From positions 110,754 through 130,753 of the forward strand of contig CAYTYR010000001.1 in NCBI GenBank assembly GCA_964441745.1: a stretch of DNA of 20,000 nt, given 5' to 3'. The notes below the pieces were generated by a model, which had not been told where the DNA came from, made no database searches, and was given only the letters and a program-made list of their open reading frames with translations. Positions within the stretch are counted from its first letter, which is position 1. Each line of letters opens with the position of its first letter. The translations under genes and the position numbers were made by a program. Of this stretch, positions 578 through 19,549 are shown in pieces. Source of the DNA: an uncultured Clostridia bacterium (GTDB lineage Bacteria; CAYTYR01; UBA6262).

Positions 578-1738
578 TTAAAAGCTTGGCTCTATACAGA
601 AGATCCGATATTTGAACTTGCTCATTCCCTGCCAGACGCCTCTCATGAAATGCCAATTGGATAAATATTTAATCTTGAACCAGTATAATAACTTGCTTTT
701 GGGCTCCCAAAAGAAGCACCAGTAGAAGAACCGGTAAGCAAAAAATACAAATAATAGTAATAGGATCATCAACCAGCCGCCACCGGCCCAAGTCGCTGTT
801 CCAGCAAATAATTTCACGATCAAACTGATCAAGGCAATGATCGTGGCCAGGCCGGCAATATGCATCATCTGGAAATTGCCAAAATAAACGAATCCTTTAA
901 TGGGAAAAGGTATCTTGATCCGCGGACAGGATTTTAGGAATTGGAATACCAGTTCAAAATGATTGGTAGCGTATTTATCCAGCAGGGCTAAATGCCCCTT
1001 GGAATAACTGGCCCAAACTTTATACAGGGCCGCATCTGTGGCCCGGTGCATATGATCCACGCTGGCTTTTGGCGCAAAGAAAGCTTTCCAGCCGTCTTTT
1101 TTGATCTTTAAGCCGAATTCTATATCTTCGCCAGTCGGCAGATCCCAAAAGCGAGCTTTGGCGCGTTCTACAGCTACCCGGCGGAAGGCCACGTTGGCCG
1201 TAACCATGAAGTAAGCCCGGTGGCCGCATATTTCGGTGGGAGACCTATCTGACATCGGCGGGAAATAACTTTCCCCGATGCCGCCATAACGCCAACTGAC
1301 ATTGTTAAAACCAAAATATTCACAAAAAGCTTCTACTAAATTATCTTTTTCTACCCGGATCGTCTTGATTTCCCCGCCGACAATGCCTATTTCCGGATCC
1401 TCGCGGAAATGCTTAAGCATTTCATGGATCCAATTTTTGGTCGGCGCACAGTCCCCGTCAGTGAAGAACAGGTATTCGCCCTGCGCCACATCCAGGGCTT
1501 TATTGCGGGCATATCCAGGAGAAGGGCAATTCGGGACATCCACTAATTTAATAAAGGGATATTTTTTTTGCCAGGTCTTAATGATCTCCACGGTTTTATC
1601 AGTACTGCCGCCGTCGGCAATAACTATCTCCATCCGCTCCCGGGGATAGTCCACGCCAAAAAGATATTCGAAAGTCTTTTCCAGTGTTCTTTCCGCGTTC
1701 TTCACCGGAATAATGATGGAAATCATCGGATCTTTCAT
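578..1738 (-). CDS. Glycosyltransferase family 2 (GT-A fold) with C-terminal transmembrane segments
   Basis: ISIIIPVKN, IVIADGGSTD, YARNKAL, FFTDGDC (DxD), TANVAFRR and GED motifs; hydrophobic C-terminus; GAGGAGG RBS upstream. Confidence 0.92.
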   Translation of the reverse strand: MKDPMISIIIPVKNAERTLEKTFEYLFGVDYPRERMEIVIADGGSTDKTVEIIKTWQKKYPFIKLVDVPNCPSPGYARNKALDVAQGEYLFFTDGDCAPTKNWIHEMLKHFREDPEIGIVGGEIKTIRVEKDNLVEAFCEYFGFNNVSWRYGGIGESYFPPMSDRSPTEICGHRAYFMVTANVAFRRVAVERAKARFWDLPTGEDIEFGLKIKKDGWKAFFAPKASVDHMHRATDAALYKVWASYSKGHLALLDKYATNHFELVFQFLKSCPRIKIPFPIKGFVYFGNFQMMHIAGLATIIALISLIVKLFAGTATWAGGGWLMILLLLFVFFAYRFFYWCFFWEPKSKLLYWFKIKYLSNWHFMRGVWQGMSKFKYRIFCIEPSF

Positions 1739-1831: not shown

Positions 1832-1861
1832 CCAATTTAGTACTGACAACAACTAACCGGG

Positions 1862-1914
1862 AAAACAAAACCGGGTACAAAATTACATTTATATTGTAAC
1901 TTTTGTACCCGGTT
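1862..1914 (-). terminator. Intrinsic terminator of the rrf2 / glycyl-loop / SOR operon
   Basis: Long stem aaccgggtacaaaa-ttaca...tgtaa-c-ttttgtacccggtt (1869-1914) running into TTTTGTTTT on the minus strand. Confidence 0.8.
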
Positions 1915-1959: not shown

Positions 1960-2397
1960 CTATAACTGTACTTCGGCCATCCATTTCCCATGGACATTGC
2001 AATTTTCAATAGCCGTGACCTGGCCAGCGCCTGATTTAAAATGAATACTGACGACAGGATTAATCTTTTCTGCCGCCAGATGGTACCTGGCCACCCATTT
2101 ATAATCCTGGTAAACATCGATCCACATGATCCAGTGTTTGGCCTCCATCACATGCAGGATTTCTCCTATTTTAATGTTAACATCCACACACCCCGGCGCC
2201 AAGCTGCATTGTTTATTTACGGTAAATACCGGGACATGTTTCTTATCCCCTTCAGTCAAATTCTTCGGGTCAGCTGGTTTTTTCAACGCATTGGCATCTT
2301 CTGTAAAAGCTTTTTTAGGCGCTCCGCAGACCGGGCATTTTTCCGGCGCCTCGCCAAATTCTATATGCCCGCACATCCCACAGACAAACATCTTCAT
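1960..2397 (-). CDS. sor: Superoxide reductase (neelaredoxin/desulfoferrodoxin catalytic domain) with an N-terminal rubredoxin-like domain
   Basis: N-terminal CGMC...CPVC of the rubrerythrin C-terminal rubredoxin type; SOR ligands KHVP, HVM..KHWIMWI and CNVHG. Confidence 0.9.
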   Translation of the reverse strand: MKMFVCGMCGHIEFGEAPEKCPVCGAPKKAFTEDANALKKPADPKNLTEGDKKHVPVFTVNKQCSLAPGCVDVNIKIGEILHVMEAKHWIMWIDVYQDYKWVARYHLAAEKINPVVSIHFKSGAGQVTAIENCNVHGKWMAEVQL

Positions 2398-2409
2398 ACC
2401 ATCCCCCTC

Positions 2410-2730
2410 TTATTTAACCGCGTAATCACCTTTACGCCGGTCGTCAAGTTCTCCCAGTTTGGATTTATTCCAATTGCTGGTTTTGCTGTAGTATCCGACG
2501 ATCCTGGTAATATGGTCTATGACCCTGGCTTCTCCGCCATCTAAGACCCGCTTCAAATTAAGCCAGTCATAATTCAAAATACTATCAACGGCAATCTTAT
2601 ACTTTTGGCTATCCTTGGTATTGAGTACCACCACATAGTCATCTTTGCTGGCCCCGCTGTGATCCTCGGCTACGAGTTGTAAATATCCGCTCTTCTCGAT
2701 TTCATCGACAAAGTTCTGGATATCCTGCAT
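2410..2730 (-). CDS. Small protein carrying only the C-terminal glycyl-radical segment of class III ribonucleotide reductase (NrdD-like)
   Basis: HITRIVGYYSKTSNWNKSKLGELDDRR matches the NrdD tail R(I/V)xGY....WN..K..E..DR. Strong RBS (AAGGGGGTG); 106 aa with no cysteines. Confidence 0.85.
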   Translation of the reverse strand: MQDIQNFVDEIEKSGYLQLVAEDHSGASKDDYVVVLNTKDSQKYKIAVDSILNYDWLNLKRVLDGGEARVIDHITRIVGYYSKTSNWNKSKLGELDDRRKGDYAVK

Positions 2731-2760
2731 GTTTTCACCCCCTTTTAAATTTTATTTAAA

Positions 2761-3186
2761 TTATTCTTCTGCCTGGACCCGGGCTTTAACTAATGCCGCC
2801 AGAGTCACCTTATGAAGAGCCTGATCGATATTCTTTTGTACCTGGCGCAACTGCTTATGGATCGGGCACTGCCTAATCCGGGAACAGCGTCCATGTTCGA
2901 TAAAACAACGGTTAACCGCAAACCCGCCCTGGGCTATTTCCATTATTTCCCCTAAAGATAATTTATTCATTTCCCGGTGCAGTGAATACCCGCCGCCAAA
3001 ACGGCCGCGGTGTGATTTAATTATATCCCGGCGCTGCAGCTTCTGCAGGATCTTATGTAAATAAACTAAAGGCACATCTTCACTAGCCGCCAAATCCTTG
3101 GCGAAAATTATATGGCCCTTTTTATACTGGCCCATTAAGGTCAGGACCCGCAGGGCATAATCCGTATTTCTCCTGATCAGTTCCAT
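2761..3186 (-). CDS. Rrf2-family transcriptional regulator with three C-terminal Cys (probable Fe-S cluster)
   Basis: TDYALRVL, YLHKILQKL, SHRGRFGGGYSL wing and C-x6-C-x5-C (NRCFIEHGRCSRIRQCPIH). Confidence 0.93.
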   Translation of the reverse strand: MELIRRNTDYALRVLTLMGQYKKGHIIFAKDLAASEDVPLVYLHKILQKLQRRDIIKSHRGRFGGGYSLHREMNKLSLGEIMEIAQGGFAVNRCFIEHGRCSRIRQCPIHKQLRQVQKNIDQALHKVTLAALVKARVQAEE

Positions 3187-3218
3187 TTATTCCTTTCTGC
3201 CTTGTCTTATACAGGACT

Positions 3219-3247
3219 ATAATAATCTTATATAAAAAAATTGTCAA
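3219..3247 (-). promoter_or_regulatory. Sigma70 promoter of the rrf2 operon
   Basis: TTGACA (3247-3242), 17 nt spacer, TATTAT (3224-3219). An imperfect palindrome GTCCTGTATAAGAC lies just downstream (3217-3204). Confidence 0.75.
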
Positions 3248-3255
3248 GTAAAATC

Positions 3256-4443
3256 TTATTTATTCTTAAAATACTTCTCCAGAACCCTGCTTAATTTCTG
3301 GTTTTTAACAAAGTTCTCTGTTTGCCAGGAAACAGCCATCTCTTTTTTCCGTTTGGGCCATTCTGTGGCAAATGTTTCCACTCCCGTGGTCTTACTCCAA
3401 CGGTTGATCCACGACGGATTATCCAAGTATTGGTAAATACCATCAGGGAAAAGTCCCCCGGCCACCGCCTTATAGGTCCAATAGGTATAATGGATCCCGT
3501 ATTTTTTGAAGATCTCAAGCACATCCCTGACCCAGGCCAGTTCCGTGCCGCAATCAGGACAGCGTGAATTAACCCCGAATTCACCGCAGTATATCGGGAT
3601 CCGATATTTTTGCTGAAATTTAACATAACGCCGCAAGATATTTTCCATTTTATTACGGTTCCAGAGTTCACCGTTTATTTTTCCCGGATAACGCAAATTA
3701 CGGACACAATTAAAGGTAAAATCGCCGGGCAGGTAATAATGAAAACTAAAACCCATTTGACTGTCCCAGGGCTGTCCCAGGAAATCAAATTCCTGCGACC
3801 AGTTATGGCCTTCGACCAAGATAATATGCTGGTCCCCGGCCGCCCTGATGGCTTGAGTGATCTTGACATATGTTTCTTTAATCATCGGCAAGTCAGCGCC
3901 AACAGCTTCGTTTAAGATATCATAAGCGGCAATGACCGGCTCATGCTTATACCGTTGAGCGATCTGGGACCAGAGCTGATAGGTCTGTTCCCGATATTTT
4001 CTCTTTTCCCAAAGGAGAGCTTTACCTTTAGAATCGCTGTGCCAGTCGCCATTCTGCGATCCCGGGGCAGCATGCAGATCCAGAATAATATAGATTTTAT
4101 GCTCTTTGGCCCAAAACAGCGCTTGGTCCAGGAAATGCCACTGTTTTTCTTTTACGATCTTATAATGAAACGGCAGCCTGATACAAGTAGCGCCAAGGTT
4201 ATGAATATGATCAAAATCCTCTTCCTGGATAAAACTACCGCGAAAGGCTTTTTCAAACTGGTCCAGAGCTTTCTTGCCGCTGGCTTTGGCTATCGCCGCT
4301 TTAAAAATATGCTCGGATATATGACGGCCCCCTAAAATATATCCTTCCATCATGAGCCAGCCGCCAAGGTTCACCCCGCGCAGGTTAACCGGCTGGTTTG
4401 CGCGATCAATTATTTTGCCATCCTTAATGCTTAAAAAATCCAT
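3256..4443 (-). CDS. Glycoside hydrolase family 5, 395 aa, no signal peptide (start revised from 4539 to 4443)
   Basis: LRGVNLGGWL, IRLPF, ILDLHAAPGSQ, ILNEA (acid/base), FHYY, CGEFG (nucleophile) and YWTYK. GGAG RBS precedes ATG 4443. The longer ORF start runs through a promoter and a terminator. Confidence 0.92.
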   Translation of the reverse strand: MDFLSIKDGKIIDRANQPVNLRGVNLGGWLMMEGYILGGRHISEHIFKAAIAKASGKKALDQFEKAFRGSFIQEEDFDHIHNLGATCIRLPFHYKIVKEKQWHFLDQALFWAKEHKIYIILDLHAAPGSQNGDWHSDSKGKALLWEKRKYREQTYQLWSQIAQRYKHEPVIAAYDILNEAVGADLPMIKETYVKITQAIRAAGDQHIILVEGHNWSQEFDFLGQPWDSQMGFSFHYYLPGDFTFNCVRNLRYPGKINGELWNRNKMENILRRYVKFQQKYRIPIYCGEFGVNSRCPDCGTELAWVRDVLEIFKKYGIHYTYWTYKAVAGGLFPDGIYQYLDNPSWINRWSKTTGVETFATEWPKRKKEMAVSWQTENFVKNQKLSRVLEKYFKNK

Positions 4444-4479
4444 AGCTGCTCCAGAGGTAATTAGTATGATCATCATTAT

Positions 4480-4509
4480 ATTGTATTGCTTTGCTTTGCT
4501 TCTTGTCAA
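4480..4509 (-). promoter_or_regulatory. Sigma70 promoter of the GH5 gene
   Basis: TTGACA (4509-4504), 18 nt spacer, TACAAT (4485-4480); an overlapping TATAAT sits at 4480-4475. Confidence 0.65.
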
Positions 4510-4554
4510 CAAAAGAAAGACCCATCTAGCTATTTTCATAGCTTAATGGGTCTT
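4510..4554 (-). terminator. Intrinsic terminator downstream of the 55-aa gene
   Basis: Hairpin aagacccat..agctat-tttc-atagct..atgggtctt (4517-4554) followed by TCTTTTG on the minus strand. Confidence 0.75.
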
Positions 4555-6113: not shown

Positions 6114-9100
6114 CTAACAATAGATATCGATCTGTTTGGCTTCCTGGGACCTGATCCTGATAGCCGCATTATGGCCGATAATACTGCCTGTGATCACTTC
6201 TTTAGTACCATCGAGCCAGATGATGGCCATGTTTGCTATCTTAAAGTCACTGGCAAAAGTATCAATATGCTTACTATTGTGATACACCAACTGAGTAGTA
6301 CCCAGGAACTTACAGCTGAATATACCCTCCCTGGTAAAATAACTTTTTGGCAGCGCGGGTTTAAATTCCAGGGTCAGTTCACCCTGGTTATTTAACTTAA
6401 ATGGTTTCCCGCCCACAGTCATCAGTATCCACATCTCCAGAAATTCAGCAGTAGAACCGCTCAAACGTGCTACGCAGCCGCGGCCCCACATCCGGCTGTC
6501 CGGGAAAGCGCTGGAAACGATAAAAGACGAGTTTTCCAGTATGCTCCGCCCATAAATCGAAGCTTTTTGGAAACAGACACCGGCTTTTTCAAATTCAGCA
6601 AAAAATTCTTCATATAAACCGCCATTGAGCAGTTCTAATAAGTATTTATATTCCATATGCAGCCAGATCGATTCGTTTTCCAGCCAGCCGGGAGAAAAAA
6701 CCGTGCACCGGCCAAAATCCGCCGGTTCTTTGGCCAAGGAAGCGTTGACCTTATACATTCCTAATTCCTGGTCATATAATGGGCTTCTCTTCATAGCTTC
6801 ATATAGCTGCTTAACCTTATTATGGCTTTTTTCTGTTTTCAAGTAATGAACTTCTGCTTCCAGGAATAAAGGTAATGGCCGCTTGCTGAATTTCTTGATT
6901 TCAACACAAGGCCAGCCTTTATGATTGTGTTTTTTACCTTTTTTATCCTTGATATAACTGAATTTTTCCGCTTTATGGGTATAATAGGTATAGTACAATC
7001 CAGAATTAGGATCAAGAGCTTTGGCCAGGCCAGCATCAATTTTCTGCAAACATAATTCCAGAAATTTCATATAGGCAGGCCCAAGGACTGGCTTTTCCTT
7101 GCCGCTGATACCAAACTTAGTTTCTTCGCGGTATTTTTCCTTCAGGCTGGTAGCTTTATCCCAAAAAGAATAAGCAGAAATTTTATCTGCGGAGGCCACT
7201 AAAGCCTGTAACCCCAGGAAAAACCGCTGCATTTCTTCAGGCAGGTTGATCTTGTAACCATTCTGGACACCAATTTTACCTAAATGGCTTTGCAGGAACT
7301 GGATCATTCTCTTTAATTCAAAGGTTTCCGGGACAGAGGAACCGAATACTCCTGACAAACCATTGAGCGCGTCATACCAGCTAGGCTTATCCGCTTCCAT
7401 TTCCATGCCAATGCCATCAGGATCCAGGGTGGCTAATTTATTGAGCAAGAGGCAAGTCATCTTAACCAGTAGATTGGTTCTGTAAATATCGCCTTTCCCT
7501 TTTTTATCCCTGACAATATGGGCTTGACTGGCACGGTCCTTAAGCAGCTCTACTTTCTCCGGGCTGATGATGACTGCGCCGAATTGCCGGATCAGGCCGT
7601 TAGCGTCAACATATTTTTCATGCCGTGGCAGGACGATGTGGGCATTATCGTAAAAAGTAAACTCTTTTTTCTCGAGCAATATCTCCTGTTCTTTTTCCGG
7701 ATAAACAGCCAGATATGTTTCTAACAAATCTAAATTATAGGTCCAATGGTCGGTCCAGAAACCTTCGCCATGCTCAGCTTCCCTGAGCCGCTGGGCTCGT
7801 CCGAAAATCTCCCGGAGCAGCTGTTCTTCGGAAACTTTCAGGGTAATCTTATTCTGTTCGATAAAAAGAAGCAAACTGCCAGGTTCAAATTGCTTGGCAA
7901 AAAACCGGGCCAGCAGTTCCTGGCCTTTTTTGTCCGTGATCCTGGCCAGCGCTTTCTTGTTTCCCGCGCTCCCGGCCTTAAAAATAAAATAGGTCCCCTT
8001 AACCAATAATGGGTTATAACCATCCAATTGGACCAGGTTATAAAAAGTCACGACATTAGTATCAACCGTTTTCGGATCAAAGAAAATATCACAGCGTTTG
8101 TTCTGGTTAATATCGCGGAAATTACCATCGCCCTGCGAATAATAAGTCGGAGAGATCAGATAATTATTATAGTCACGCTCCAGGTCACCATGCTTGCGGG
8201 CAAAAACAAAAAAGGGGATACTGCTCTCCCCGGCTGGCAGCTTAACCGGCATGCCCCCGCGCAAAACATTATCCAGGTAAGTCTGCCGGCAATATAAATT
8301 GAATTCCCGTCGGCTGGATTGGGTCTGGATCGGCTCGGAAATATCCTGGATAATCTGTTTATTCTCATCCCGTTTACGGTTGAAATAGCCGACATCCCTG
8401 GCTTTCTCGAAATGATCATTCAGTTGTTGTTCACTGTCCACATGCCCGGTCATCGAGTAGATGGTCTGAGCCTGCCCGGCAGCCAAGGCGCATTTAAAGA
8501 AACTCATCGCCGCCGGATATTTATTGTCACCAAATTGTTTCACTGGCAGGATAAAATCCTGTTGCTTAATAAAGGCCGCTGGATAATTATAATCAGTGAC
8601 TTCGCCAAAGATCAATTCCGGGTCAATGATCATCTGTGTTGGGTGTAATTCCCCGTTAAGATTTTCCAGGGTAAAATAGAAGTTTCCCTCTTTCAGCGCA
8701 TGTACTTCTGGCCGGTCACTGATTTCAACCTTTAATTGGTAAAAAGGCAGGCCGGTCTTTTCAAAATTAGTTACTTTGGCCCAAGCTTGGGCCGTGTGGC
8801 TCATATATTTCAGCACATCATTGCTTGTCCAATAGGGAATTATTTTTGGCAAGCCATCAATTACTTCCAGCTCAAGTTCATTATTACCGGTATTGATTAC
8901 TTCGACGATACGCACTAGCGCTGCTATTGGCTCCTGCGGCAGGGTAAAGTACTTGACGATGATCTTGAGGCCAATAGTTTCATTAGTCTCTTCTAATATC
9001 AATTCGGCCGGATGAATGAACATTTTCTGAGTGGTTTTATAAGCATTATTAGCGTTATTGTTCTGGAAAGGTTCATAAAACCGAACCTGATCTTGGTGTT

Positions 9101-9386
9101 TTATCTTAATAAAGGTGCGGAAGCCAATATTAGGAGTGAGTCCATACGACCGGTTGGCTGGCTGGTACTCCATAATGGAATAATTCTTGCCTTTAATGCC
9201 AAAAGAGGCGATGCTTTGTCCCCGGTTGACGTAAAACAGCCACATCGGAATACCTTTAAGGCCGGCAATCCCCGGGAAAAAACTGGAAAAGGTCCTGGCC
9301 AGGTTGTAATTATCTATTTCAAAGGTACCATCGTCATGTAACTGGTATTTTACTTCATCTTCTTCTTTCACATACGCGCTAACCAT
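6114..9386 (-). CDS. Large glycoside phosphorylase, most likely GH161 (beta-1,3-glucan phosphorylase; often annotated as cellobiose phosphorylase)
   Basis: 1090 aa. FSSFFPGIAG..GIPMW.FYVNRGQ, RKHGDLERDYN, G.GNFRDINQN, GEGFWTDHWTYNLDL, MEADKPSWYDALNGL, WLENESIWLHMEYKY and ARLSGSTAEF. AAGGAG RBS. Confidence 0.8.
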   Translation of the reverse strand: MVSAYVKEEDEVKYQLHDDGTFEIDNYNLARTFSSFFPGIAGLKGIPMWLFYVNRGQSIASFGIKGKNYSIMEYQPANRSYGLTPNIGFRTFIKIKHQDQVRFYEPFQNNNANNAYKTTQKMFIHPAELILEETNETIGLKIIVKYFTLPQEPIAALVRIVEVINTGNNELELEVIDGLPKIIPYWTSNDVLKYMSHTAQAWAKVTNFEKTGLPFYQLKVEISDRPEVHALKEGNFYFTLENLNGELHPTQMIIDPELIFGEVTDYNYPAAFIKQQDFILPVKQFGDNKYPAAMSFFKCALAAGQAQTIYSMTGHVDSEQQLNDHFEKARDVGYFNRKRDENKQIIQDISEPIQTQSSRREFNLYCRQTYLDNVLRGGMPVKLPAGESSIPFFVFARKHGDLERDYNNYLISPTYYSQGDGNFRDINQNKRCDIFFDPKTVDTNVVTFYNLVQLDGYNPLLVKGTYFIFKAGSAGNKKALARITDKKGQELLARFFAKQFEPGSLLLFIEQNKITLKVSEEQLLREIFGRAQRLREAEHGEGFWTDHWTYNLDLLETYLAVYPEKEQEILLEKKEFTFYDNAHIVLPRHEKYVDANGLIRQFGAVIISPEKVELLKDRASQAHIVRDKKGKGDIYRTNLLVKMTCLLLNKLATLDPDGIGMEMEADKPSWYDALNGLSGVFGSSVPETFELKRMIQFLQSHLGKIGVQNGYKINLPEEMQRFFLGLQALVASADKISAYSFWDKATSLKEKYREETKFGISGKEKPVLGPAYMKFLELCLQKIDAGLAKALDPNSGLYYTYYTHKAEKFSYIKDKKGKKHNHKGWPCVEIKKFSKRPLPLFLEAEVHYLKTEKSHNKVKQLYEAMKRSPLYDQELGMYKVNASLAKEPADFGRCTVFSPGWLENESIWLHMEYKYLLELLNGGLYEEFFAEFEKAGVCFQKASIYGRSILENSSFIVSSAFPDSRMWGRGCVARLSGSTAEFLEMWILMTVGGKPFKLNNQGELTLEFKPALPKSYFTREGIFSCKFLGTTQLVYHNSKHIDTFASDFKIANMAIIWLDGTKEVITGSIIGHNAAIRIRSQEAKQIDIYC

Positions 9387-10693: not shown

Positions 10694-11752
10694 CTACTGT
10701 TTCACTTGCGGAAACCAGTGGCGGGTTTTATTGGAAAATTTAACCAAACTGAGCATGATCGGTACTTCCGTGAGTACACCGACCACAGTTGCCAGCGCCG
10801 CTCCGCTCTTTAAGCCAAAAAGAGAAATTGCTACTGCCACTGATAATTCAAAAAAATTGCTTGCTCCGATCAGGGCGGCAGGAGACGCAATATCATGGGG
10901 CAAATGCCATTTTTTAGACCACCAATAGCCGATAAAGAAAATGAAATAGGTCTGGATAGTCAGGGGGACAGCAATGAGCAGGATATGCAAAGGATTCCCG
11001 AGTATAATATTCCCCTGGAACGCAAAAAGGATAATCAGGGTCAATAATAACCCTATCACGGTAATTGGTTTAAGAGCCTTTAAAAACACCTGTTCAAACC
11101 ACTCGGCTCCTTTTCTCTTCAATAAATATACCCTGGAAAGATAACCCCCGGTCAAAGGCACAACTACAAAAAGAATAGTAGAATAGATCAAGGTATCATA
11201 CGGCACGGTTATCTGGTTCACGCCTAATAAAAACTTAACGATCGGAACAAAGGCTATTAAGATCACCAGGTCGTTAACCGCTACCTGCACCAGAGTATGG
11301 GCTGGATTGCCTTTAGTTAAATAGCTCCAGACAAAGACCATAGCTGTACAAGGCGCGGCTCCCAATAGTATAGCGCCGGCTATATACTCTTTCGCTAAGG
11401 CCGGATCAATAAAGGCCGCAAACAAATACTTTAAGAAGATCACGGCAAAAACAGCCATGGTAAATGGCTTGATCAGCCAGTTAACCACCAGGGTGACAGC
11501 CAATCCTTTTGGTTTTTTCCCGACTTTAACAATACTGGAAAAATCGATCTGCACCATCATCGGATAGATCATCAGCCAGATCAGGACCGCTACCGGTATA
11601 TTCACCTGGGAAATTTCCAAAGTACTTAAGAAATTCACTCCCGCGGGAAATATCTTACCGATAATTATCCCGGCCATGATACAAAAAATAACCCAGAGCG
11701 AAAGATATCTCTCAAAAAAGGGCAGCTTAACAACGCTGTCAGCTTCTGTCAT
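10694..11752 (-). CDS. acr3: ACR3-family arsenite efflux transporter
   Basis: FERYLSLWV, LIWLMIYPMM, NWLIKPF, GAAPCTAMVFVW, VAVND, GASNFFELSVAVAI and GVLTEVPIML. Confidence 0.96.
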   Translation of the reverse strand: MTEADSVVKLPFFERYLSLWVIFCIMAGIIIGKIFPAGVNFLSTLEISQVNIPVAVLIWLMIYPMMVQIDFSSIVKVGKKPKGLAVTLVVNWLIKPFTMAVFAVIFLKYLFAAFIDPALAKEYIAGAILLGAAPCTAMVFVWSYLTKGNPAHTLVQVAVNDLVILIAFVPIVKFLLGVNQITVPYDTLIYSTILFVVVPLTGGYLSRVYLLKRKGAEWFEQVFLKALKPITVIGLLLTLIILFAFQGNIILGNPLHILLIAVPLTIQTYFIFFIGYWWSKKWHLPHDIASPAALIGASNFFELSVAVAISLFGLKSGAALATVVGVLTEVPIMLSLVKFSNKTRHWFPQVKQ

Positions 11753-11765
11753 GAATAAAGTCTCC

Positions 11766-12068
11766 TTATTTTTCCACTAAGTATTTTTCAAACAATTCTT
11801 TATCCCAATTAAGCTGGGTCCCGGCAGCCTGCAATGAGGAAAGAAGAATAGCTTCTGCTACTTCCTGCTTGGTGGCTCCTGCGGCCAAGGCATCTTTAAT
11901 ATGATGCTCAGTGCAATGCGGGCACCTAAAGACTGAAGCCACTGCCAGCCGGATCAATTCCTTGGTTTTTGCATCAAGCACGGTCCCTTGTTTTGCCGCG
12001 TTCGAAAAATGCTGATACGCTGCTCCCAGTTGGGATTGTTTCAAATACCACGGTGTTTCATTTGCCAT
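11766..12068 (-). CDS. Carboxymuconolactone decarboxylase / AhpD-like protein with CxxC
   Basis: LDAKTKELIRLAVA...RCPHCTEHH...ALAAGATKQEVAEAI; AAGGAGG RBS. Confidence 0.9.
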   Translation of the reverse strand: MANETPWYLKQSQLGAAYQHFSNAAKQGTVLDAKTKELIRLAVASVFRCPHCTEHHIKDALAAGATKQEVAEAILLSSLQAAGTQLNWDKELFEKYLVEK

Positions 12069-12096
12069 ATTGCGCCTCCTTTAATAATATTTGTGC

Positions 12097-12807
12097 CTAC
12101 ATTTGCTTAGCCGTATATATAAGGTAAATACCTCCTAATAAGACCAACACCCCGCAGATTTTCTTCACTATGACCGCGTCTTTTGATCTTTCAGTCCAGT
12201 TAAGATATCCCTGTACTACCTCAGTGAAGGTGCCAGCCAGTACGATCACCGAGATATGCCCAAGAGCATAAGACAGGACCAGGATTACTGCCAGCAAGAG
12301 GTTACTAGCTCCTACGGTAAACGCTACTCCCAGCATTGGCGCCATATAAGCGAAGGTACAAGGGCCAAGAGCGATACCGAAAATTAATCCCAGTATGAAT
12401 GCTGCTGCTAATCCCTTTTTCTGGTATGCCGGCTGGCCAGATTTCCCTAAAAAAGGCAAGGGGATTATACCGAGCAGGTGCAAACCGACCACCAAGAATA
12501 TTATCGCGACAAAATAATTACCCCAGGATCCGACATCACCCATGATCCGGCCCAGCAGGCCGGTAATTACTCCTATAAGTGCAATCGTGATCAGGATACC
12601 GGATGAAAATAAGGTAGAGAGTAAAAACGCGTGTTTTGTAGAAATACGCCCCTGTTCATCAATAAAGCCAATGATTAAGGGGATGCTGGCCAAATGGCAT
12701 GGGCTCAAAATAATACTTAGCACACCCCAAATAAAAGAAGCAGTTATGGCTATGAACGGATTGGCATAAAGAGCATTACTAAGCCAGGTGAAGAGACTAA
12801 CCAGCAT
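12097..12807 (-). CDS. ccdA: CcdA / DsbD-transmembrane-type electron transporter
   Basis: About 6 TM with the two redox Cys motifs ILSPCHLASIP and LGPCT; overlaps the upstream stop (TAATG). Confidence 0.9.
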   Translation of the reverse strand: MLVSLFTWLSNALYANPFIAITASFIWGVLSIILSPCHLASIPLIIGFIDEQGRISTKHAFLLSTLFSSGILITIALIGVITGLLGRIMGDVGSWGNYFVAIIFLVVGLHLLGIIPLPFLGKSGQPAYQKKGLAAAFILGLIFGIALGPCTFAYMAPMLGVAFTVGASNLLLAVILVLSYALGHISVIVLAGTFTEVVQGYLNWTERSKDAVIVKKICGVLVLLGGIYLIYTAKQM

Positions 12808-13196
12808 TATTTAACTCCCTGCTGTTTTAGTACTTTCACTACTTCCTCTTTAGGGAAAAAACCCAGATGACGGAAGTATTCCTTACCATCCTTGTCCAAA
12901 AAAACCTGGGTAGGAATAGCGCGTATTTGGTATTTCTCACCATATGGCCGGCCAGCCGCAGTCCACACATCATAAAAAACTACTTCTACCTGTCCTTGGT
13001 ATTCTTTTTTAATGTCTTCTATAATGGGCTGCATCATCTTGCAAGGAACACATTTAACCGAACCTAATTCAATAAACGTCACTTTTATAGTTTTTTGTTT
13101 TTTCTGGTGGTTGGTTTCCTTTGATGCGCCATAGATATCAATCAGGCTCATGATCAATACCGCGCTTACCAGGACCACATATTTTAAATACTTCAT
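12807..13196 (-). CDS. Exported thioredoxin-family protein
   Basis: N-terminal signal or anchor, CVPC active site and the cis-Pro motif IRAIPTQ. Confidence 0.9.
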   Translation of the reverse strand: MKYLKYVVLVSAVLIMSLIDIYGASKETNHQKKQKTIKVTFIELGSVKCVPCKMMQPIIEDIKKEYQGQVEVVFYDVWTAAGRPYGEKYQIRAIPTQVFLDKDGKEYFRHLGFFPKEEVVKVLKQQGVK

Positions 13197-13214
13197 TCAT
13201 TGACTCTCCTGTAG

Positions 13215-14009
13215 TTATTTTAAAGCAGGTTTTATTCCCGATACGCGAATACTGGTAACTATCTTAGTCAAATCGCTGGCCGCCCCAACCACATTTTCTA
13301 CGGCCAAAGCAGGCTCAGCGGCTGTTTTAACCTCACGGAAGCCGACAGCTTTAATCAGGTTGAGATATTCTTCTTTCAGTATTGCCCCGGCAATACAGGC
13401 GACATAGGCTTCAAATGAACGCTTCAGCTCAGCAGACAATTCTTTAAGCAATACCATGTCTGACACCATGATCCGGCCGCCTGGTTTCAATACCCGAAAA
13501 ACTTCCTGGAATACTTTCTTTTTATCCGGGGAAAGATTAATAACACAATTGGAGATGACCACATCAACTGAATTATCCGCTACCGGCAGGTTTTCAATCT
13601 CGCCTAACTTGAACTCTACATTTCGGTAATTTCCTTTTTCCGCATTTTGACGTGCTTTCTTGATCATTTCCGGGGTCATATCAACGCCAATGACCTGGCC
13701 TTTTTCTCCTACTTTGCGCGCGGACATAAAACAATCTATGCCCGCGCCAGAGCCCAGGTCAAGAACAGTTTCGCCTTCCCGCAAAGAAGCAAACGCAGTG
13801 GGATTACCGCAGCCAAGTCCAAGATTAGCATCTTTGGGTATATTAGCCAGGTCTTCAGCATTATAGCCTAGTTTCTGGCTGGCCTCAGCCGCGGAACGCG
13901 TCCCGCCACAGCATGAGCTTGAAGAGCCGCAGCAGCATGACCCATTAGTCTCGGCAATTTTCCCATAACTGTCCTGCACTATCTTTTTAATATCCTTTGG
14001 CTTTTCCAT
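13215..14009 (-). CDS. arsM: Arsenite S-adenosylmethionine methyltransferase (start probably 14009)
   Basis: Cys-rich N-terminus (CCC...CC), [27 protein letters not shown] and VACIAGA. The AGGAG RBS spacing favours the second ATG. Confidence 0.95.
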
Positions 14010-14018
14010 TTTCATCTC

Positions 14019-14264
14019 CTATTTTGTCTGCTTTTCTAAGATCCACTTTTTTATCTCTTCTTTAGATGGGATCCTGCCGGCTACCACCACTTTGGCATCA
14101 ATAACCAAAGCCGGAGTGATCATCACTCCATAATTCATAATGTCGCTGATTTGATCTACCTTTACTATTTCCGCAGGGATTCCAAGTTCCTTCACAGTTT
14201 CAGTAACTATTCCCGTTAGTTTTTTGCATTTCGGGCAACCCATACCCAAAATCTCAATTTTCAT
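14019..14264 (-). CDS. Small redox-active disulfide protein (MTH895/TM0996-type thioredoxin)
   Basis: KIEILGMGCPKC...IMNYGVMITPALVID...GRIPS. Confidence 0.92.
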   Translation of the reverse strand: MKIEILGMGCPKCKKLTGIVTETVKELGIPAEIVKVDQISDIMNYGVMITPALVIDAKVVVAGRIPSKEEIKKWILEKQTK

Positions 14265-14272
14265 CGTTCCCC

Positions 14273-15226
14273 CTATTTCATTATTATATTAAACAAGTAT
14301 CCGGTAAACATAATTCCTAAGCCAACGATCCCGGCAAAAATCAGTATTAGTTTAACTTTCATTACCTTCTTCAAGATCAAGAATTCTGGCAAGGAAAGAC
14401 CGGTGACTGCCATCATGAACGCCAGGGCCGTACCCAGCCCTACTCCTTTTTCTACCAAGGCTTTAACCATCGGGATAACACCTGCGGCATTGGAATAAAG
14501 GGGTATGCCGATCAAAGTGGCTAAGGGGACAGCGAACCATTTGTCTTTACCGGCATATTGTGCCAGGAAATCAGCTGGGACATACCCATGGATCCAAGCT
14601 CCCAAACCAATACCTATTAATACATAAAGGCCTATTCTTTTTAAAATATCCCGGGTATAGCTTTTAGCAAACTCCACTCTCTCACGGAAGCTGGTTTTCC
14701 CGGGGACTGCGGAACAACAGGTCTGCGTCTTATGAACAATAGTTTCTACCAAGTTTTCTACTTTTAACATGCCAATGATTAATCCTGAAATTATGGCGAT
14801 CACCAAGCCGCTAAAAATATAGATTACCGCTATTTTCCAGCCAAACATACCCCAGAGCATAACTAAAGCTACTTCATTGATCATGGGAGATGATACCAGG
14901 AAAGAAAAAGTCACACCCAAGGGGACTCCGGCTTCAACAAAACCCAGGAACAAAGGTATAGCGCTGCAAGTACAAAATGGGGTAACAATACCCAGTAAGG
15001 CAGCTAAAATATTACCGATATAGGTGTGTTTATGGCTTAAAATAGCCCTGGTTCTTTCTGGCGGAAAGAAAGTGCGGATAAAAGAAACCATAAAGATGAT
15101 GGTGACCAGCAAAAAGAAGATCTTGATCGTATCATAGACAAAAAAGTGGACGGCCGAGCCAAACAGGGTGCTGGCGGACAAGCCTAGTATCTTAAATACC
15201 AGCCAATCAGCGAATGTAATGATCAT
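14273..15226 (-). CDS. ArsP / DUF318-family permease
   Basis: FFVYDTIKI, TPFCTCSAIPLF, SFLVSSPMINE, GIPLYSNAAG and LSLPE; overlaps the arsR stop (ATGA). Confidence 0.9.
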   Translation of the reverse strand: MIITFADWLVFKILGLSASTLFGSAVHFFVYDTIKIFFLLVTIIFMVSFIRTFFPPERTRAILSHKHTYIGNILAALLGIVTPFCTCSAIPLFLGFVEAGVPLGVTFSFLVSSPMINEVALVMLWGMFGWKIAVIYIFSGLVIAIISGLIIGMLKVENLVETIVHKTQTCCSAVPGKTSFRERVEFAKSYTRDILKRIGLYVLIGIGLGAWIHGYVPADFLAQYAGKDKWFAVPLATLIGIPLYSNAAGVIPMVKALVEKGVGLGTALAFMMAVTGLSLPEFLILKKVMKVKLILIFAGIVGLGIMFTGYLFNIIMK

Positions 15227-15711: not shown

Positions 15712-16527
15712 TTATCGGTTATGTTTATTTATCAAAAACCGTATGGCGCTTATAAAAATAAATCCTAAACACATAACAACAACATTTGTTGTCCCGCTCG
15801 GCAGATCGGCTATAAAAGAAATATATATGCCAATAATAGTTGAGACCAGCGCCACTGACATAGAAACAATAAAGATTGTCTTCATCTTTTCACTTACCAG
15901 GAGAGCGGTCATTGCCGGGATAGTCAAATAAGCAAATGACAAAAGCACGCCTGTTGTTCTTACGCTCATAGATATCATAATGCCCATAATAAAATAAAAC
16001 AAGAAATTCCAGAAATTTGTATTGATCCCCTGGGTTTTTGCGGTTTCGCTGTCAAAAAAGGCAAATATAAATCTTCTATAAAACACAATATGCGCCAGAG
16101 ACAATAAAAAAACCAAGGCAATGACCGTATAAACTTCTTTTGTGGTAATAGTGAGGATATTACCTGAAAACATATCTAGCAGACTGCCCTCACCCTCATG
16201 AGATTTGGCAATAAATATAATGCCAAGAGACGAAAACAGGGCATACATAAAACCTATGAATGCTTCCCTGGTTATTCTTCTTTCTTGAGCGTGAAACGAA
16301 AAAACAATAACTCCGGCCATGGTAAATAGTAATGAATAAAATGATGAATTAAATCCCATTAACAAACCAAAGGCAAATCCACAAGCAGCCAGTTGGGAAA
16401 GGGCTATACTAACAAATACTATTCTCCTTAAGACCACATACACCCCAATAAAAGAAAAAAACACTCCTATTAGTGAACTTACCAAAAGCGCTTTCTGTAT
16501 AAACGGAATAGACAACATTTCAAGCAT
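15712..16527 (-). CDS. znuB: Metal ABC transporter permease (ZnuB/MntB, ABC-3 family)
   Basis: GVYVVLRRIVF, F.GNIL, FD.E.A...G, GVLL....L.IP and ADLPSG; multi-TM. The transported metal is uncertain. Confidence 0.88.
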   Translation of the reverse strand: MLEMLSIPFIQKALLVSSLIGVFFSFIGVYVVLRRIVFVSIALSQLAACGFAFGLLMGFNSSFYSLLFTMAGVIVFSFHAQERRITREAFIGFMYALFSSLGIIFIAKSHEGEGSLLDMFSGNILTITTKEVYTVIALVFLLSLAHIVFYRRFIFAFFDSETAKTQGINTNFWNFLFYFIMGIMISMSVRTTGVLLSFAYLTIPAMTALLVSEKMKTIFIVSMSVALVSTIIGIYISFIADLPSGTTNVVVMCLGFIFISAIRFLINKHNR

Positions 16528-16536
16528 AGCTTTCTC

Positions 16537-17280
16537 CTATCCAGGAATAACGATTTTTTTGCCAAAAATAGAGCCAATATGCACTTGCGCATGATAAGTT
16601 CTCCAAAACTCTTTTTCGCTTAAAGCTGTTTCAATGGGAAGAATTTCGAATTTATCAGAGCCAATAAACCCTATTTTTTCAACATAATTGATAACGACAT
16701 TAATAAGGTGGCTTACCATTATGACTGTTATTTTCCCATTATTATGCAGGATTTGAATAAGGTCCATTATCGCTTTCTCGCTTGAGATATCGAGGTCGTT
16801 AGTCGGCTCATCAAGGATCAGAACATCCGGCTTACTTACTAAAGCCCTGGCCATAAGCACCCGTTGTTTTAAACCGCCGGATAAATTCCTGTAAGGGATA
16901 GAGGCATACGCCTCTATCCCAATCTGGTTTAGTACAAGGTTTATTCTAGCCTTATTTGCATTGTTAAATGGCTGCAACATTGGCATTTTAGCATGCAAAC
17001 CCATTTTTACTATTTCAAATACTGTAAAAGGAAAAATATCGTCAATGGTGTTTGACTGTGGGACATAACCATATACCAGTGAATCTTGGCTTGTAATTTC
17101 ACCAGACAGTGGATTAATGAGCCGGAGAATACCCTTTAATATAGTTGTTTTTCCAGATCCGTTAGTCCCGACTATGCCGATAAAATCACCTCTATTTAAA
17201 GAAAAAGACAAGCCAGCCAACACTGTTTTATTATTATACCCTAAGCTCACGTTTTTAAACTGAATTAAGGGATCTTCCAT
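16537..17280 (-). CDS. znuC: Metal ABC transporter ATP-binding protein
   Basis: Walker A GTNGSGKT, GYVPQ, LSGG.KQR, Walker B LILDEPT and VSH switch. Confidence 0.9.
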   Translation of the reverse strand: MEDPLIQFKNVSLGYNNKTVLAGLSFSLNRGDFIGIVGTNGSGKTTILKGILRLINPLSGEITSQDSLVYGYVPQSNTIDDIFPFTVFEIVKMGLHAKMPMLQPFNNANKARINLVLNQIGIEAYASIPYRNLSGGLKQRVLMARALVSKPDVLILDEPTNDLDISSEKAIMDLIQILHNNGKITVIMVSHLINVVINYVEKIGFIGSDKFEILPIETALSEKEFWRTYHAQVHIGSIFGKKIVIPG

Positions 17281-17281
17281 T

Positions 17282-18187
17282 CTAGTCCTCCGTTATTTGT
17301 GAAATGATATAATCAAAAAGACCAATATAGTTTTTGACTGTACCTCTCATCCCGCCTGTAGCAATAGGAAGAATAACTATCTTTGCTCCCGTCTCTTTAG
17401 CGACCAGCGCAGAAGATTTAACAGAATAAATATTTTCATGGAGAATAATCAATCCCCCCAGAGGCTTAAGCTGCTGTATTAAGTGGTTTAAATAGGCCGC
17501 TGATGGCGGGATGCCTGGTTTCGGTTCTATAGTTGCTGTTATCGCCAAGCCAAACCTTCGAGCAAAATACTCCCAGGATTTGTGATAAGAAACAATCTTT
17601 CTCCCTTTATATGGTTCTAATTTCATGCTCCATTCTTTCATTTTATCATCCAGTTTCCTGGCAAATAACTCTTTATTGCGCGTAAAATATTCTTTGTTTT
17701 CCGGCGTTATACGTATAAGACCGGCTAAGATATTCTCCGCTATGACCCGGCCATTTCCCGGGTCAAGCCAATAATGGGGATTACCATAAATATGGACATG
17801 TCCCATACCAGCGTCAACTTTACCGCGGGGAACTTCCAGGCGTTCAATGCCGATAGAAACATCAAGATATCCTGGAGCGCCAAATACTATCCTGGAATTC
17901 CTGGCAGCATCTATGAGGCTGTCTGCCCAGGAGTCATAAGCCATACCGATACGAACGAACAAATCCGCTTTTCTTAAACCCATAACCATACTTGGCCGCG
18001 GCTCAACCGAATTGCAGCCAGATTGGTCCCCATGGGACAGGCTTATAACTTCAATTTTGTCTTGGCCGATCTCCTTGGCAATATCCGCGAGATCGGTAGT
18101 CGTGGTAACAACTTGCAGTTTGGCTTCTGTAGCATATAAAGGAACTGTAAATAATATTATAAATAGCACTGTTTTAAATAATTTCAT
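17282..18187 (-). CDS. znuA: Cluster A-I metal-binding protein (ZnuA/TroA family); start revised to 18187
   Basis: Signal peptide MKLFKTVLFIILFTVPLYA, VVTTTTDLADIA, GNPHYWLDP, YHKSW and IEPKPGIPPS. GAGGAGG RBS precedes ATG 18187. Confidence 0.9.
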   Translation of the reverse strand: MKLFKTVLFIILFTVPLYATEAKLQVVTTTTDLADIAKEIGQDKIEVISLSHGDQSGCNSVEPRPSMVMGLRKADLFVRIGMAYDSWADSLIDAARNSRIVFGAPGYLDVSIGIERLEVPRGKVDAGMGHVHIYGNPHYWLDPGNGRVIAENILAGLIRITPENKEYFTRNKELFARKLDDKMKEWSMKLEPYKGRKIVSYHKSWEYFARRFGLAITATIEPKPGIPPSAAYLNHLIQQLKPLGGLIILHENIYSVKSSALVAKETGAKIVILPIATGGMRGTVKNYIGLFDYIISQITED

Positions 18188-18246
18188 TATCCCCTCCTCA
18201 TATTTGTTCGCATTGCTCAACTGCCAATACCGGGTTGTTAATAGCC

Positions 18247-19458
18247 CTATTCCAGCGGATGGCTGTGTGGCCCGATGCCGAATGACATCTGTAAAAACGC
18301 TTCAAATCTGCCTTCCGGCTCACTGTAATATTTATATTGACCTCTTAAATAAGTGGTTTCGGTCAGGTTTCTCGTGATAATTACTGACTGGGCTCTTGTG
18401 TCCTGGCTTACATCTACGCTAGTAATACCTGATGCGTCTTCATGAGGGAAAGCGTCTTGGGTTTGGTCATAACGCGTGCCAAAACTCCAATACTGGTTTA
18501 GTTTATAGCCAAGATAACTGTAAAACCCGTTTCTTTTAATTGTGCCAATGGGTACTTCGCGGTTTAGCATAAAGTATTCATTCTGCCAGACAATCTTTGA
18601 AAAAGCTGATGGAAATAATTTAAAGGTTATATCTACTCCGGAAACCTGCGTTTTATCTTTGTGCTCTAAATAATGAGCTCCCATTCCTTTTACATAGCTT
18701 ATCCCGCTTACCATTTCAGAATCCCTGCTTATAGGAAACGAAAGTTTAAGTCTCCCTATTGAAACTTGGTCGGCCAGCGAAAATTCTGCATGTTCGTGCT
18801 CTTGATGCAAGTCAACCGTTATGGTATTTCCGCTTGTATCAACAACATCAGCTGTATCTGATTCTTCGGTTGAATGATGATGTCCGGCCGGCGCATGTCC
18901 CCATCCTGCTTCTATTTCCGCAAAAAAGGGCAGCGGAAGAAGATAATTCAAAGACGCTCCTTCCAGCATAAGTCCGTGGTCTCCCATAAAGTTTTTGTGA
19001 ACATCCGGTTGGTCAACAAAAGGCAGATGATGCGGATGAAAACTGTTTACTATACCAAAATTGCCCAGCATTTTACCCGCTTTTAAGCTGAAAGCATTAA
19101 ATAAATTAGTAAAAATAACGTTTGCCTCTTCTATATCAGATTCAATGTTTCCCTCGTGTTTATGAAAGGCAAGAATAACATTGGCTTTCATTTCCGGATA
19201 AATATAGCCTTGATACGCAAACTCCACGCTACGTAGCTGGAGTCTGTCCTTATCTATATCTCCATCTATATTGCACGCTTTACCCACAATTTCTCCGACG
19301 ACGCTTATATCCGGCAAATCTGTGGATACCCCTCTCATCCCTGCCGGTTTTGCCGGTTCCTGCATGACCGCCGTACCACCATAGATGTTCTCCCGGGATT
19401 GCGCAAAAACATTAAATGCTGAAAAGATAAAAATAGAAATTAGCAGAAATAGCCGCAT
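18247..19458 (-). CDS. His-rich outer-membrane beta-barrel (porin-like) of the type found next to Zn-type ABC operons; start revised to 19458
   Basis: Signal peptide ending VFA, PDISVV, IEEA, AGK...FG..N..HPHHLPFVD.P, amphipathic strands, a His-rich loop and C-terminal GPHSHPLE. AGGAGG RBS. Confidence 0.75.
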   Translation of the reverse strand: MRLFLLISIFIFSAFNVFAQSRENIYGGTAVMQEPAKPAGMRGVSTDLPDISVVGEIVGKACNIDGDIDKDRLQLRSVEFAYQGYIYPEMKANVILAFHKHEGNIESDIEEANVIFTNLFNAFSLKAGKMLGNFGIVNSFHPHHLPFVDQPDVHKNFMGDHGLMLEGASLNYLLPLPFFAEIEAGWGHAPAGHHHSTEESDTADVVDTSGNTITVDLHQEHEHAEFSLADQVSIGRLKLSFPISRDSEMVSGISYVKGMGAHYLEHKDKTQVSGVDITFKLFPSAFSKIVWQNEYFMLNREVPIGTIKRNGFYSYLGYKLNQYWSFGTRYDQTQDAFPHEDASGITSVDVSQDTRAQSVIITRNLTETTYLRGQYKYYSEPEGRFEAFLQMSFGIGPHSHPLE

Positions 19459-19476
19459 AACAATTTTCCTCCTATT

Positions 19477-19516
19477 TAAAATAAACTGAAAACCTGGCCT
19501 TAAAATAATAAAGCCA
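19477..19516 (-). terminator. Terminator/attenuator-like hairpin between the leader ORF and the porin gene
   Basis: Minus strand TGGCTTTA-TTATTT-TAAGGCCA followed by GGTTTTCAGTTTATTTT. Confidence 0.4.
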
Positions 19517-19549
19517 TGTTTATAAAGCACTTATATGCTTTTAGTATGC

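Follow-up and report, generated by a model that had tools for sequence, protein, structure and literature searches.

A stand-alone NrdD-type glycyl-radical protein encoded with an Rrf2 regulator and a superoxide reductase: a candidate spare part for class III ribonucleotide reductase

Oxygen cuts all glycyl-radical enzymes at the radical glycine. In Escherichia coli, GrcA (YfiD), an autonomous glycyl radical cofactor, replaces the loop of pyruvate formate-lyase (PFL) after this cleavage, according to the available portions of two sources (PMC13450708, PMC8683613), the first of which describes the N-terminal part of YfiD as disordered. In the accessible literature, Y06I of phage T4 is a further spare part of the PFL type. 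The portions of a June 2026 review that were available (PMC13450708) name spare parts for formate lyases only and treat their existence for other glycyl-radical enzymes as yet undetermined, which agrees with a preliminary description of the locus reported here, whose author knew of no characterised spare part for class III ribonucleotide reductase (RNR). A separate C-terminal module is known from NrdJa/NrdJb of Pseudomonas aeruginosa, a split class II enzyme in which this module is a polypeptide of its own (PMC9669993), and the accessible parts of two surveys (PMC9669993; bioRxiv 10.1101/2022.04.23.489257) describe only this split class II enzyme. In the same literature, as far as its main texts were available, we encountered neither a stand-alone NrdD loop protein nor a split class III RNR; the survey supplements may list loop-less NrdDs. 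Here, we analyzed 20,000 nucleotides of the genome of an uncultured Clostridia bacterium (GCA_964441745.1, contig CAYTYR010000001.1, positions 110,754 to 130,753; the whole stretch is referred to as the window), in which a protein of 106 amino acids ending in the glycyl-radical loop of the class III RNR, NrdD, is encoded between an Rrf2-family regulator and a superoxide reductase (SOR). It is very probable that this small protein is a trans-acting glycyl-radical part for NrdD. We estimate a probability of roughly 0.6 that it serves here as a stress-induced spare part, based on its operon, the intact NrdD that is the only RNR of the genome, the constraint on the gene, and the redox-stress genes that recur beside its relatives.

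The small gene occupies positions 2410–2730 of the minus strand, and a purine-rich ribosome-binding site (RBS) read from the sequence, AAAAGGGGGTGA (2735–2746, minus strand), is located 4 nucleotides 5′ of its ATG. The last 32 residues of the protein correspond to the glycyl-radical loop of NrdD, with the C-terminal RxxGY motif at R76-I-V-G79-Y80, and the NrdD encoded in the same genome shares 21 of 28 loop residues with the small protein. Residues 69–100 matched positions 532–561 of the 562 positions of PF13597 with 26.2 bits, exactly at the cut-off, and TIGR02487 was matched at positions 550–580 of 581 (22.6 bits, cut-off 326). PF13597 was the sole Pfam entry; the PFL-type family Gly_radical (PF01228) gave no match at E ≤ 0.1, and residues 1–68 matched no profile. 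The ten-stranded barrel with its finger-loop cysteine(s) was not found in the protein, which matches C-terminal profile positions only, and because it contains no cysteine it lacks the four-cysteine Zn ribbon of NrdD. The preliminary description had read the Gly79 loop, the lack of cysteine, the RBS, and an unassignable N-terminal part from the letters alone, and our analysis agrees with it on each.

The small protein resembles GrcA in several respects. Both are small (about 100–130 amino acids) stand-alone proteins whose C-terminus copies the loop of a large enzyme that has its gene elsewhere in the genome, an additional N-terminal part and a cognate activase are present in both cases, and the use proposed for both follows cleavage by oxygen. 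In contrast to the PFL-type loop of GrcA, the loop of the small protein is of the NrdD type (PF13597); its N-terminal part is predicted to be folded, as an α-β3-α2 domain, whereas that of YfiD is disordered in the account available; and its family is also the sole carrier of the loop for NrdDs that lack one, a state for which the accessible sources report no PFL counterpart. The difference from NrdJa/NrdJb, as far as the available text describes that system, is that the latter is a class II (cobalamin) enzyme, and that its separate part bears redox cysteines and a Zn finger rather than the radical site. Among solved structures, the sole match of the family was the NrdD loop of Prevotella copri (PDB 8p23, residues 705–735, E = 0.031). 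The loop motif and the subsequent helix are common to both, but the small protein is the product of a separate gene and has neither the barrel nor the Zn-ribbon cysteines.

The genome assembly comprises 2.07 Mb in 39 contigs and is 98.3% complete. It contains one nrdD gene, on contig 17, which encodes 841 amino acids with an ATP cone, a glycyl loop that reads RIVGY (G780), and a Zn ribbon formed by C750, C753, C764, and C767, all four of which are invariant in 32 sequences. An NrdG2 activase gene (195 bits, cut-off 131) adjoins this nrdD, and the full-length enzyme and its activase are therefore encoded elsewhere in the genome, as they are for GrcA. In the window itself, neither the nrdD core nor nrdG is present among the open reading frames (ORFs) of ≥ 120 amino acids, as had been noted from the letters. 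A second NrdG2 (193 bits, same cut-off; L003:1075–1770) is encoded on contig 1, about 13 kb past the end of the window, next to a CoA-disulfide-reductase/NADH-oxidase-like gene and a gene for an Mrp/MinD-like Fe-S ATPase. Of the 42 other genomes that we compared, G002 and G003 alone also showed two NrdG2 genes, and the idea of a dedicated second activase as a family-wide trait was dropped for this reason. The class I/II RNR family and PF01228 each gave no match in the genome of the window. No RNR or glycyl-radical enzyme other than NrdD was thus detected in this genome, which makes NrdD the sole candidate partner of the small protein; the candidate substrates of the two activases are just NrdD and the small protein.

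The three genes of the operon are arranged on the minus strand in the order Rrf2, small gene, SOR, with gaps of 30 and 12 nucleotides, and are bounded by one promoter and one terminator, as the preliminary description had proposed. The promoter is of the sigma-70 type (TTGACA-17-TATTAT; 3219–3247, minus strand) and matches the consensus at 11 of 12 positions. The sequence from −35 to about +10 forms a block that is nearly unchanged in five of five aligned relatives, whose flanks diverge, and a candidate Rrf2 operator overlaps the −10 element. The first gene (2761–3186, minus strand) encodes an Rrf2-family transcription regulator of 141 amino acids (PF02082, 4.9e-29; TIGR00738, 94.3 bits, cut-off 73.3) with a winged-helix domain and three cysteines spaced Cx6Cx5C; the equivalog models of the subtypes IscR, NsrR, RirA, and CymR all scored below their own cut-offs. 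The last gene (1960–2397, minus strand) encodes an SOR of 145 amino acids with a rubredoxin-like domain at its N-terminus (PF21349, 4.8e-10) and the ferrous-iron domain of desulfoferrodoxin (PF01880, 1.3e-18; 67.8 bits, cut-off 22.2), and the NCBIfam domain and equivalog models scored under their cut-offs. An intrinsic terminator, consisting of a long hairpin followed by a U-run, lies at 1861–1914 (minus strand). It was missed by a consensus scan and was detected by folding the RNA of positions 1850–1925, where the hairpin reaches −27.5 kcal/mol (z = −5.43) and none of 200 shuffled sequences was equally stable.

The following course of events would make the small protein a spare part. The small gene is predicted to be co-transcribed with the Fe-S-type Rrf2 regulator and the SOR gene, NrdD has a loop of its own in this genome, and the small protein most likely serves as a spare part made on oxidative (or nitrosative) stress. 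One of the two NrdG activases would abstract hydrogen from Gly79, and the Gly79 hairpin would enter the NrdD barrel by the finger-loop cysteines, where it would replace the C-terminal loop of NrdD itself. When oxygen cuts activated NrdD at G780, the small protein would then restore the only RNR of the cell, with no need for a new enzyme of 841 amino acids. All of these steps, from the radical on Gly79 to docking, induction, and rescue, are ones that we infer. What sequence and comparison do show is the family and its conservation, the operon, the intact nrdD and nrdG genes, and the split systems that occur naturally.

Relatives of the small protein are numerous. A word-indexed search gave 260 relatives of 58–186 amino acids, most of which span 95–100% of the query, and each one that carries a name in its source is called “hypothetical.” A profile search of 1.84 billion representatives gave 974 clusters at E ≤ 0.001, of which 625 also passed E ≤ 1e-10. 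Among the best 150 representatives, 149 are 74–221 amino acids long, and in 118 aligned members R76, V78, G79, Y80, N86, W87, N88, S90, K91, E94, L95, R98, G101, and Y103 are invariant, so that position 77 is the one that varies within the RxxGY motif. The small size and conserved motif that the preliminary description anticipated for homologs are both present. The AlphaFold2 model of the protein (predicted local distance difference test, pLDDT, 84.8) predicts the α-β3-α2 domain at residues 1–66, a hairpin tipped by Gly79, and a helix at 84–100. For the N-terminal domain, a Foldseek search of the PDB gave nothing at E ≤ 0.001, and the best hit of a wide VIA-align search, a HicA-like α-β3-α fold, had a Z score of 5.5, within the common range of that tool, so that no fold was assigned. 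The eight small proteins with the N-terminal domain that were compared with PHROG families, six of them viral, gave no match. In the ESM Atlas, the nearest clusters to residues 1–68 (0.77–0.80, lead level only) are “hypothetical” proteins of about 100–130 amino acids that are partly viral. One relative, P0093, carries PF27822 as a precomputed label; a Pfam scan with a copy lacking PF27822 gave PF13597 alone.

A few family members have additional parts. P0167 (802 amino acids) is a C-terminal fusion to a family-A DNA polymerase with a 3′-5′ exonuclease domain and is probably viral; it could also be a fusion produced by gene calling. P0209 and P0249 have C-terminal extensions of ~100 amino acids with a CxxC motif; a glutaredoxin-like identity of these extensions was considered and found no Pfam support at E ≤ 0.01.

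A profile-profile comparison with NrdD was confident over the loop and helix only, and extended collinearly from residue 26 into NrdD 718–773 with low per-column confidence. The small protein was possibly derived from the C-terminus of NrdD, as judged from this alignment, and the same alignment is what could be cited for a functionless remnant, either a decayed NrdD fragment or the leftover of an ancestral split gene. We regard such a remnant as hardly credible. In the clade of the window, in which every NrdD is intact, the ratio of nonsynonymous to synonymous substitution rates (dN/dS) is 0.017–0.081 over the whole ORF, which indicates strong purifying selection and hence a gene that is not a decaying fragment. 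The RBS of its own, the position in the operon, the confidently predicted fold, and hundreds of full-length relatives also speak against a remnant. The preliminary description had allowed for a split NrdD, a non-conserved glycine, or decay; in this genome, NrdD is in one piece, the glycine is conserved, and a dN/dS of 0.02–0.08 is not that of decay.

To see which NrdD accompanies the family elsewhere, we scanned one genome per species and obtained 80 loci, of which 42 contained a stand-alone small ORF and 38 were the C-terminus of a full-length NrdD. NrdD was searched in the 42 genomes, and its C-terminus was read past the conserved landmark SPEF-CxxC-CxxC. With the genome of the window included, the C-terminus was readable in 37 of 43 genomes; G008, G012, and G023, in which NrdD is cut by a contig end, and G017, G027, and G035, in which no NrdD was found, were left out of the counts. 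The loop R[IV][IV]GY was intact in 15 of the 37 (the genome of the window, G001–G005, G007, G021, G024, G025, G031–G033, G036, and G039) and missing or decayed in the other 22. In six of these 22, an Elusimicrobiota metagenome-assembled genome (MAG) and Auribacterota/UBP3-like MAGs, NrdD ends just past the Zn ribbon or enters an unrelated tail, and one of the six terminates exactly one position before the glycine. The small gene lies directly downstream of nrdD in all six, with its own RBS, and nrdG is adjacent in four (G006, G030, G041, and G042). In the Auribacterota/UBP3-type clusters that have sufficient flanks (L035, L046, L076, and L078), the order is dCMP deaminase, nrdR, nrdD, small gene, followed by nrdG in L035, L076, and L078, while L046 stops at the small gene; L031 is truncated, and in L011 nrdG is located upstream of nrdD. 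The small protein of L035 and L011 has 98 amino acids. In L011, a spacer (4140–4281) separates the loop-less nrdD from the small gene and contains two copies of a ~57-nucleotide repeat, each with a GC-rich palindrome. In six Brocadiales genomes, a remnant of the loop is recognisable, with the glycine replaced in five (RLDSY, RVDDY, RTDSY) and kept in G020 (RTDGY). The remnant has decayed further in the other ten Planctomycetota-like genomes.

The cores of the loop-less NrdDs are otherwise well conserved and free of stops (E of about 1e-112 to 1e-122). NrdG2 is retained in 20 of the 22 genomes, mostly beside the loop-less nrdD, and in 35 of the 42 small-gene genomes overall. Class I/II RNR was not seen in 14 of the 22, including two records titled whole chromosomes (G038 and G040). 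In the genomes with a loop-less NrdD, the small protein is the only loop-bearing protein. A conserved NrdD and its activase could serve no purpose in the absence of a loop, so the simplest reading is that the small protein supplies the radical in trans. To judge from these gene inventories, it most likely carries the radical as a subunit of a split class III RNR wherever NrdD is loop-less. With 22 of 37 readable genomes in this state, the family acts as an obligate subunit no less often than as a spare.

The gene neighborhood differs between the two NrdD states. We counted genes for Rrf2, PerR-like Fur, SOR, rubrerythrin, Hcp, and Rex located at most three genes from the small gene. Where NrdD is intact, such a neighbor was found in 13 of 15 cases, the exceptions being L010 and the short archaeal contig L012, and five gene types were represented across Elusimicrobiota-like, Clostridia, Omnitrophota, and Planctomycetota genomes; the clustering with oxidative-stress genes that the preliminary description expected of homologs thus holds in this group. 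Where NrdD is loop-less, it was found in 1 of 22 (L016), and the remaining small genes are beside nrdD or genes for valyl-tRNA synthetase, RecG-ThiD, SerA, or ClpP. The raw 2 × 2 table gives p = 4e-7 in Fisher's exact test, a value inflated by relatedness. On a careful tree of the small protein, the label “intact” changes five times, of which at least four changes are forced by supported branches, which means that the two modes interconverted repeatedly.

We also modeled the complex of the small protein with NrdD 120–779, the expected product of cleavage at G780, both entered as alignments. The interface score ipSAE was 0.71, 0.88, and 0.68 (median 0.71), compared with 0.00 for the best of three controls; among solved complexes, 58 of 80 reach the mark applied to this score, as do 2 of 110 mismatched pairs. 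At least 45% of the contacts agreed between runs, and the pLDDT of the partner was at least 67. The confident part of the predicted interface comprises residues 67–82 (the hairpin) and 88–106 of the small protein, and on the NrdD side residues 482–483, by the invariant Cys pair 481/482, 430–435, 643–652, and the strand/Zn-ribbon region 742–752. Among the modeled contacts are those of residues 67–82 with NrdD 482–483 and of residues 71–75 with NrdD 746–751. The model places the Gly loop in the barrel of truncated NrdD and backs binding without proving it.

These results bear on the possibility, also raised in the preliminary description, that the small protein is a decoy or regulator, which under stress would absorb NrdG or its radicals and so spare NrdD from activation and cutting by oxygen. 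The complete activase-recognition loop of the small protein, the two NrdG2 paralogues of the genome, and co-transcription with a stress regulator would all suit such a sink. However, genomes with a loop-less NrdD and no other loop protein or RNR require a productive partner rather than a sink, and the loop and helix residues are alike in members from genomes with intact and with loop-less NrdD. The complex model, moreover, seats the loop in the NrdD barrel at the Cys pair, and a sink would have no need of the conserved N-terminal domain that contacts NrdD in the model. On this evidence, the decoy has lost ground and appears improbable.

A use closer to the split systems must also be weighed, in which the small protein is a routine second radical carrier beside intact NrdD, either as a radical reservoir or as a means for NrdG to load the radical away from the large enzyme, and co-transcription with SOR would reflect shared anaerobic housekeeping. 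As the family is the only loop carrier in 22 of 37 readable genomes, routine use is its common mode; the state of NrdD switches at least four times on the tree, and the modes interconvert easily; and L010 keeps the small gene without Rrf2 or SOR neighbors. On the other hand, 13 of the 15 small genes that coexist with intact NrdD adjoin redox-stress regulators or detoxifying enzymes, and one would expect the gene of a routine carrier to adjoin nrdD and nrdG, like that of the split systems. We consider a routine carrier unlikely, although less so than a decoy.

Several points count against a stress-induced spare part in the genome of the window. The obligate-subunit role in 22 of 37 genomes means that the copy in the window may be an alternative subunit rather than one for repair. 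Gene absences were read from MAGs whose completeness is not known, except for the genome of the window and the two chromosome records. The association of context with NrdD state amounts to two independent contrasts on supported branches or four on all branches (sign test, p = 0.5), and the tree of the small protein gives so few contrasts that this test cannot reach significance. L010, which is the nearest outgroup in the clade of the window (75% identity) and has an intact NrdD, carries Ldh upstream and neither an Rrf2 nor an SOR gene next to the small gene. The complex score may be memory of the model, since in the solved NrdDs the barrel is occupied by the loop of its own chain. In addition, cleaved NrdD may not release its own remnant strand. 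The proposal that the protein is the NrdD equivalent of GrcA is supported for this genome: the computational checks set out in the preliminary description, namely the size and motif of the homologs, their neighbors, and an intact nrdD and nrdG elsewhere in the genome, all came out in its favor. It needs the correction that the family partners a loop-less NrdD in 22 of 37 genomes.

Finally, the small protein could be a substrate or partner of another radical-SAM system, e.g., AmmeMemoRadiSam, in a role unrelated to RNR. The AmmeMemoRadiSam enzyme (TIGR04337, 327–339 bits, cut-off 220) is encoded just downstream of nrdG in L035 (5188–6195) and L076 (7485–8486), near the small gene in L031 (2168–3244), and also in the genome of the window (L005:1264–2265), and its partner Memo (TIGR04336) is encoded near the small gene in the Brocadiales loci L015 (8686–9915) and L017 (5686–6906). 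Two different parts of one system thus stand beside the small gene in two lineages, by chance or through a functional link. We rate such a role as very unlikely: the loop is of the NrdD type, 35 of 42 genomes retain NrdG2, proximity in two lineages may be chance, and no such gene is present in the window.

The family also occurs in phages. A search of IMG/VR with the family profile gave 80 loci, of which 75 contain small open frames of 53–265 amino acids and five contain full-length NrdD. No NrdD core was found within 5 kb of any small viral ORF. Of the 75 small-ORF records, 50 were searched whole, and an NrdD core was present in two, in both cases loop-less or interrupted. CheckV rates 10 records as at least 90% complete; all of these contain the small ORF and no NrdD core, and seven of them have terminal repeats. 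Since NrdD cores are absent from near-complete records, the small proteins of phages would have to act on the NrdD of the host. The viral sequences are interspersed among cellular clades on the tree. They are similar to Y06I of phage T4 in that a stand-alone glycyl-radical protein is borne by a phage without the large enzyme, and differ in the enzyme family served, PFL for Y06I and NrdD here; the six viral proteins that were compared match no PHROG family. Some NrdD genes or pieces in phages are unusual (records G048, locus L123, and G090, locus L191; loci L146, L195, and L197). Some of these NrdD frames are very long (1585–1676 amino acids), with the profile matched piecewise as inteins would give, and G090 has a 682-amino-acid core (profile positions 1–518) and a 53-amino-acid ORF with half a Zn ribbon plus the loop, ~6 kb apart on one strand.

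Taken together, the chances are about even that class III RNR is modular in general, with one family of detachable loops used as an obligate subunit, a stress-regulated spare, and a phage-carried part. The obligate use may apply to Auribacterota/UBP3, the Elusimicrobiota MAG, and many Planctomycetota, including the anammox Brocadiales; the spare-part use may apply to the genome of the window, Clostridia, Omnitrophota, and Planctomycetia MAGs with intact NrdD; and in phages the part may plug into host NrdD and sustain the supply of deoxynucleoside triphosphates during infection. If true, spare parts would for the first time be known outside pyruvate formate-lyase, and the split enzymes would be the first glycyl-radical enzyme found here that normally keeps its radical site on a separate small subunit. 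Because NrdD is the only source of DNA precursors of this organism, its cheap revival after a pulse of oxygen would bear directly on the survival of strict anaerobes under aeration. Loop-less nrdD genes found in nature are ready positive controls for trans-complementation, and the split systems offer a simple two-piece means to study activase access to the glycine and loop docking. The anammox case concerns organisms of engineering interest, and the copies in phages point to an auxiliary gene of a new kind.

The surroundings of the operon consist of a gene of the GH5 cellulase family upstream (3256–4539, minus strand) and a GT2 glycosyltransferase gene downstream (578–1738, minus strand). Both hold the same positions in the close relatives L006–L010, which indicates a stable neighborhood with no obvious mobile element. 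Elsewhere in the window, two minus-strand ORFs of 1090 (6114–9386) and 427 amino acids (18247–19530) matched no Pfam family at E ≤ 1e-8. An arsenic-like cluster (10694–15226, minus strand) encodes an SBF/Acr3-type carrier, a DsbD-like membrane protein, a thioredoxin, a SAM methyltransferase, and an ArsP permease, and is followed by ZnuABC-type transporter genes at 15712–18220.

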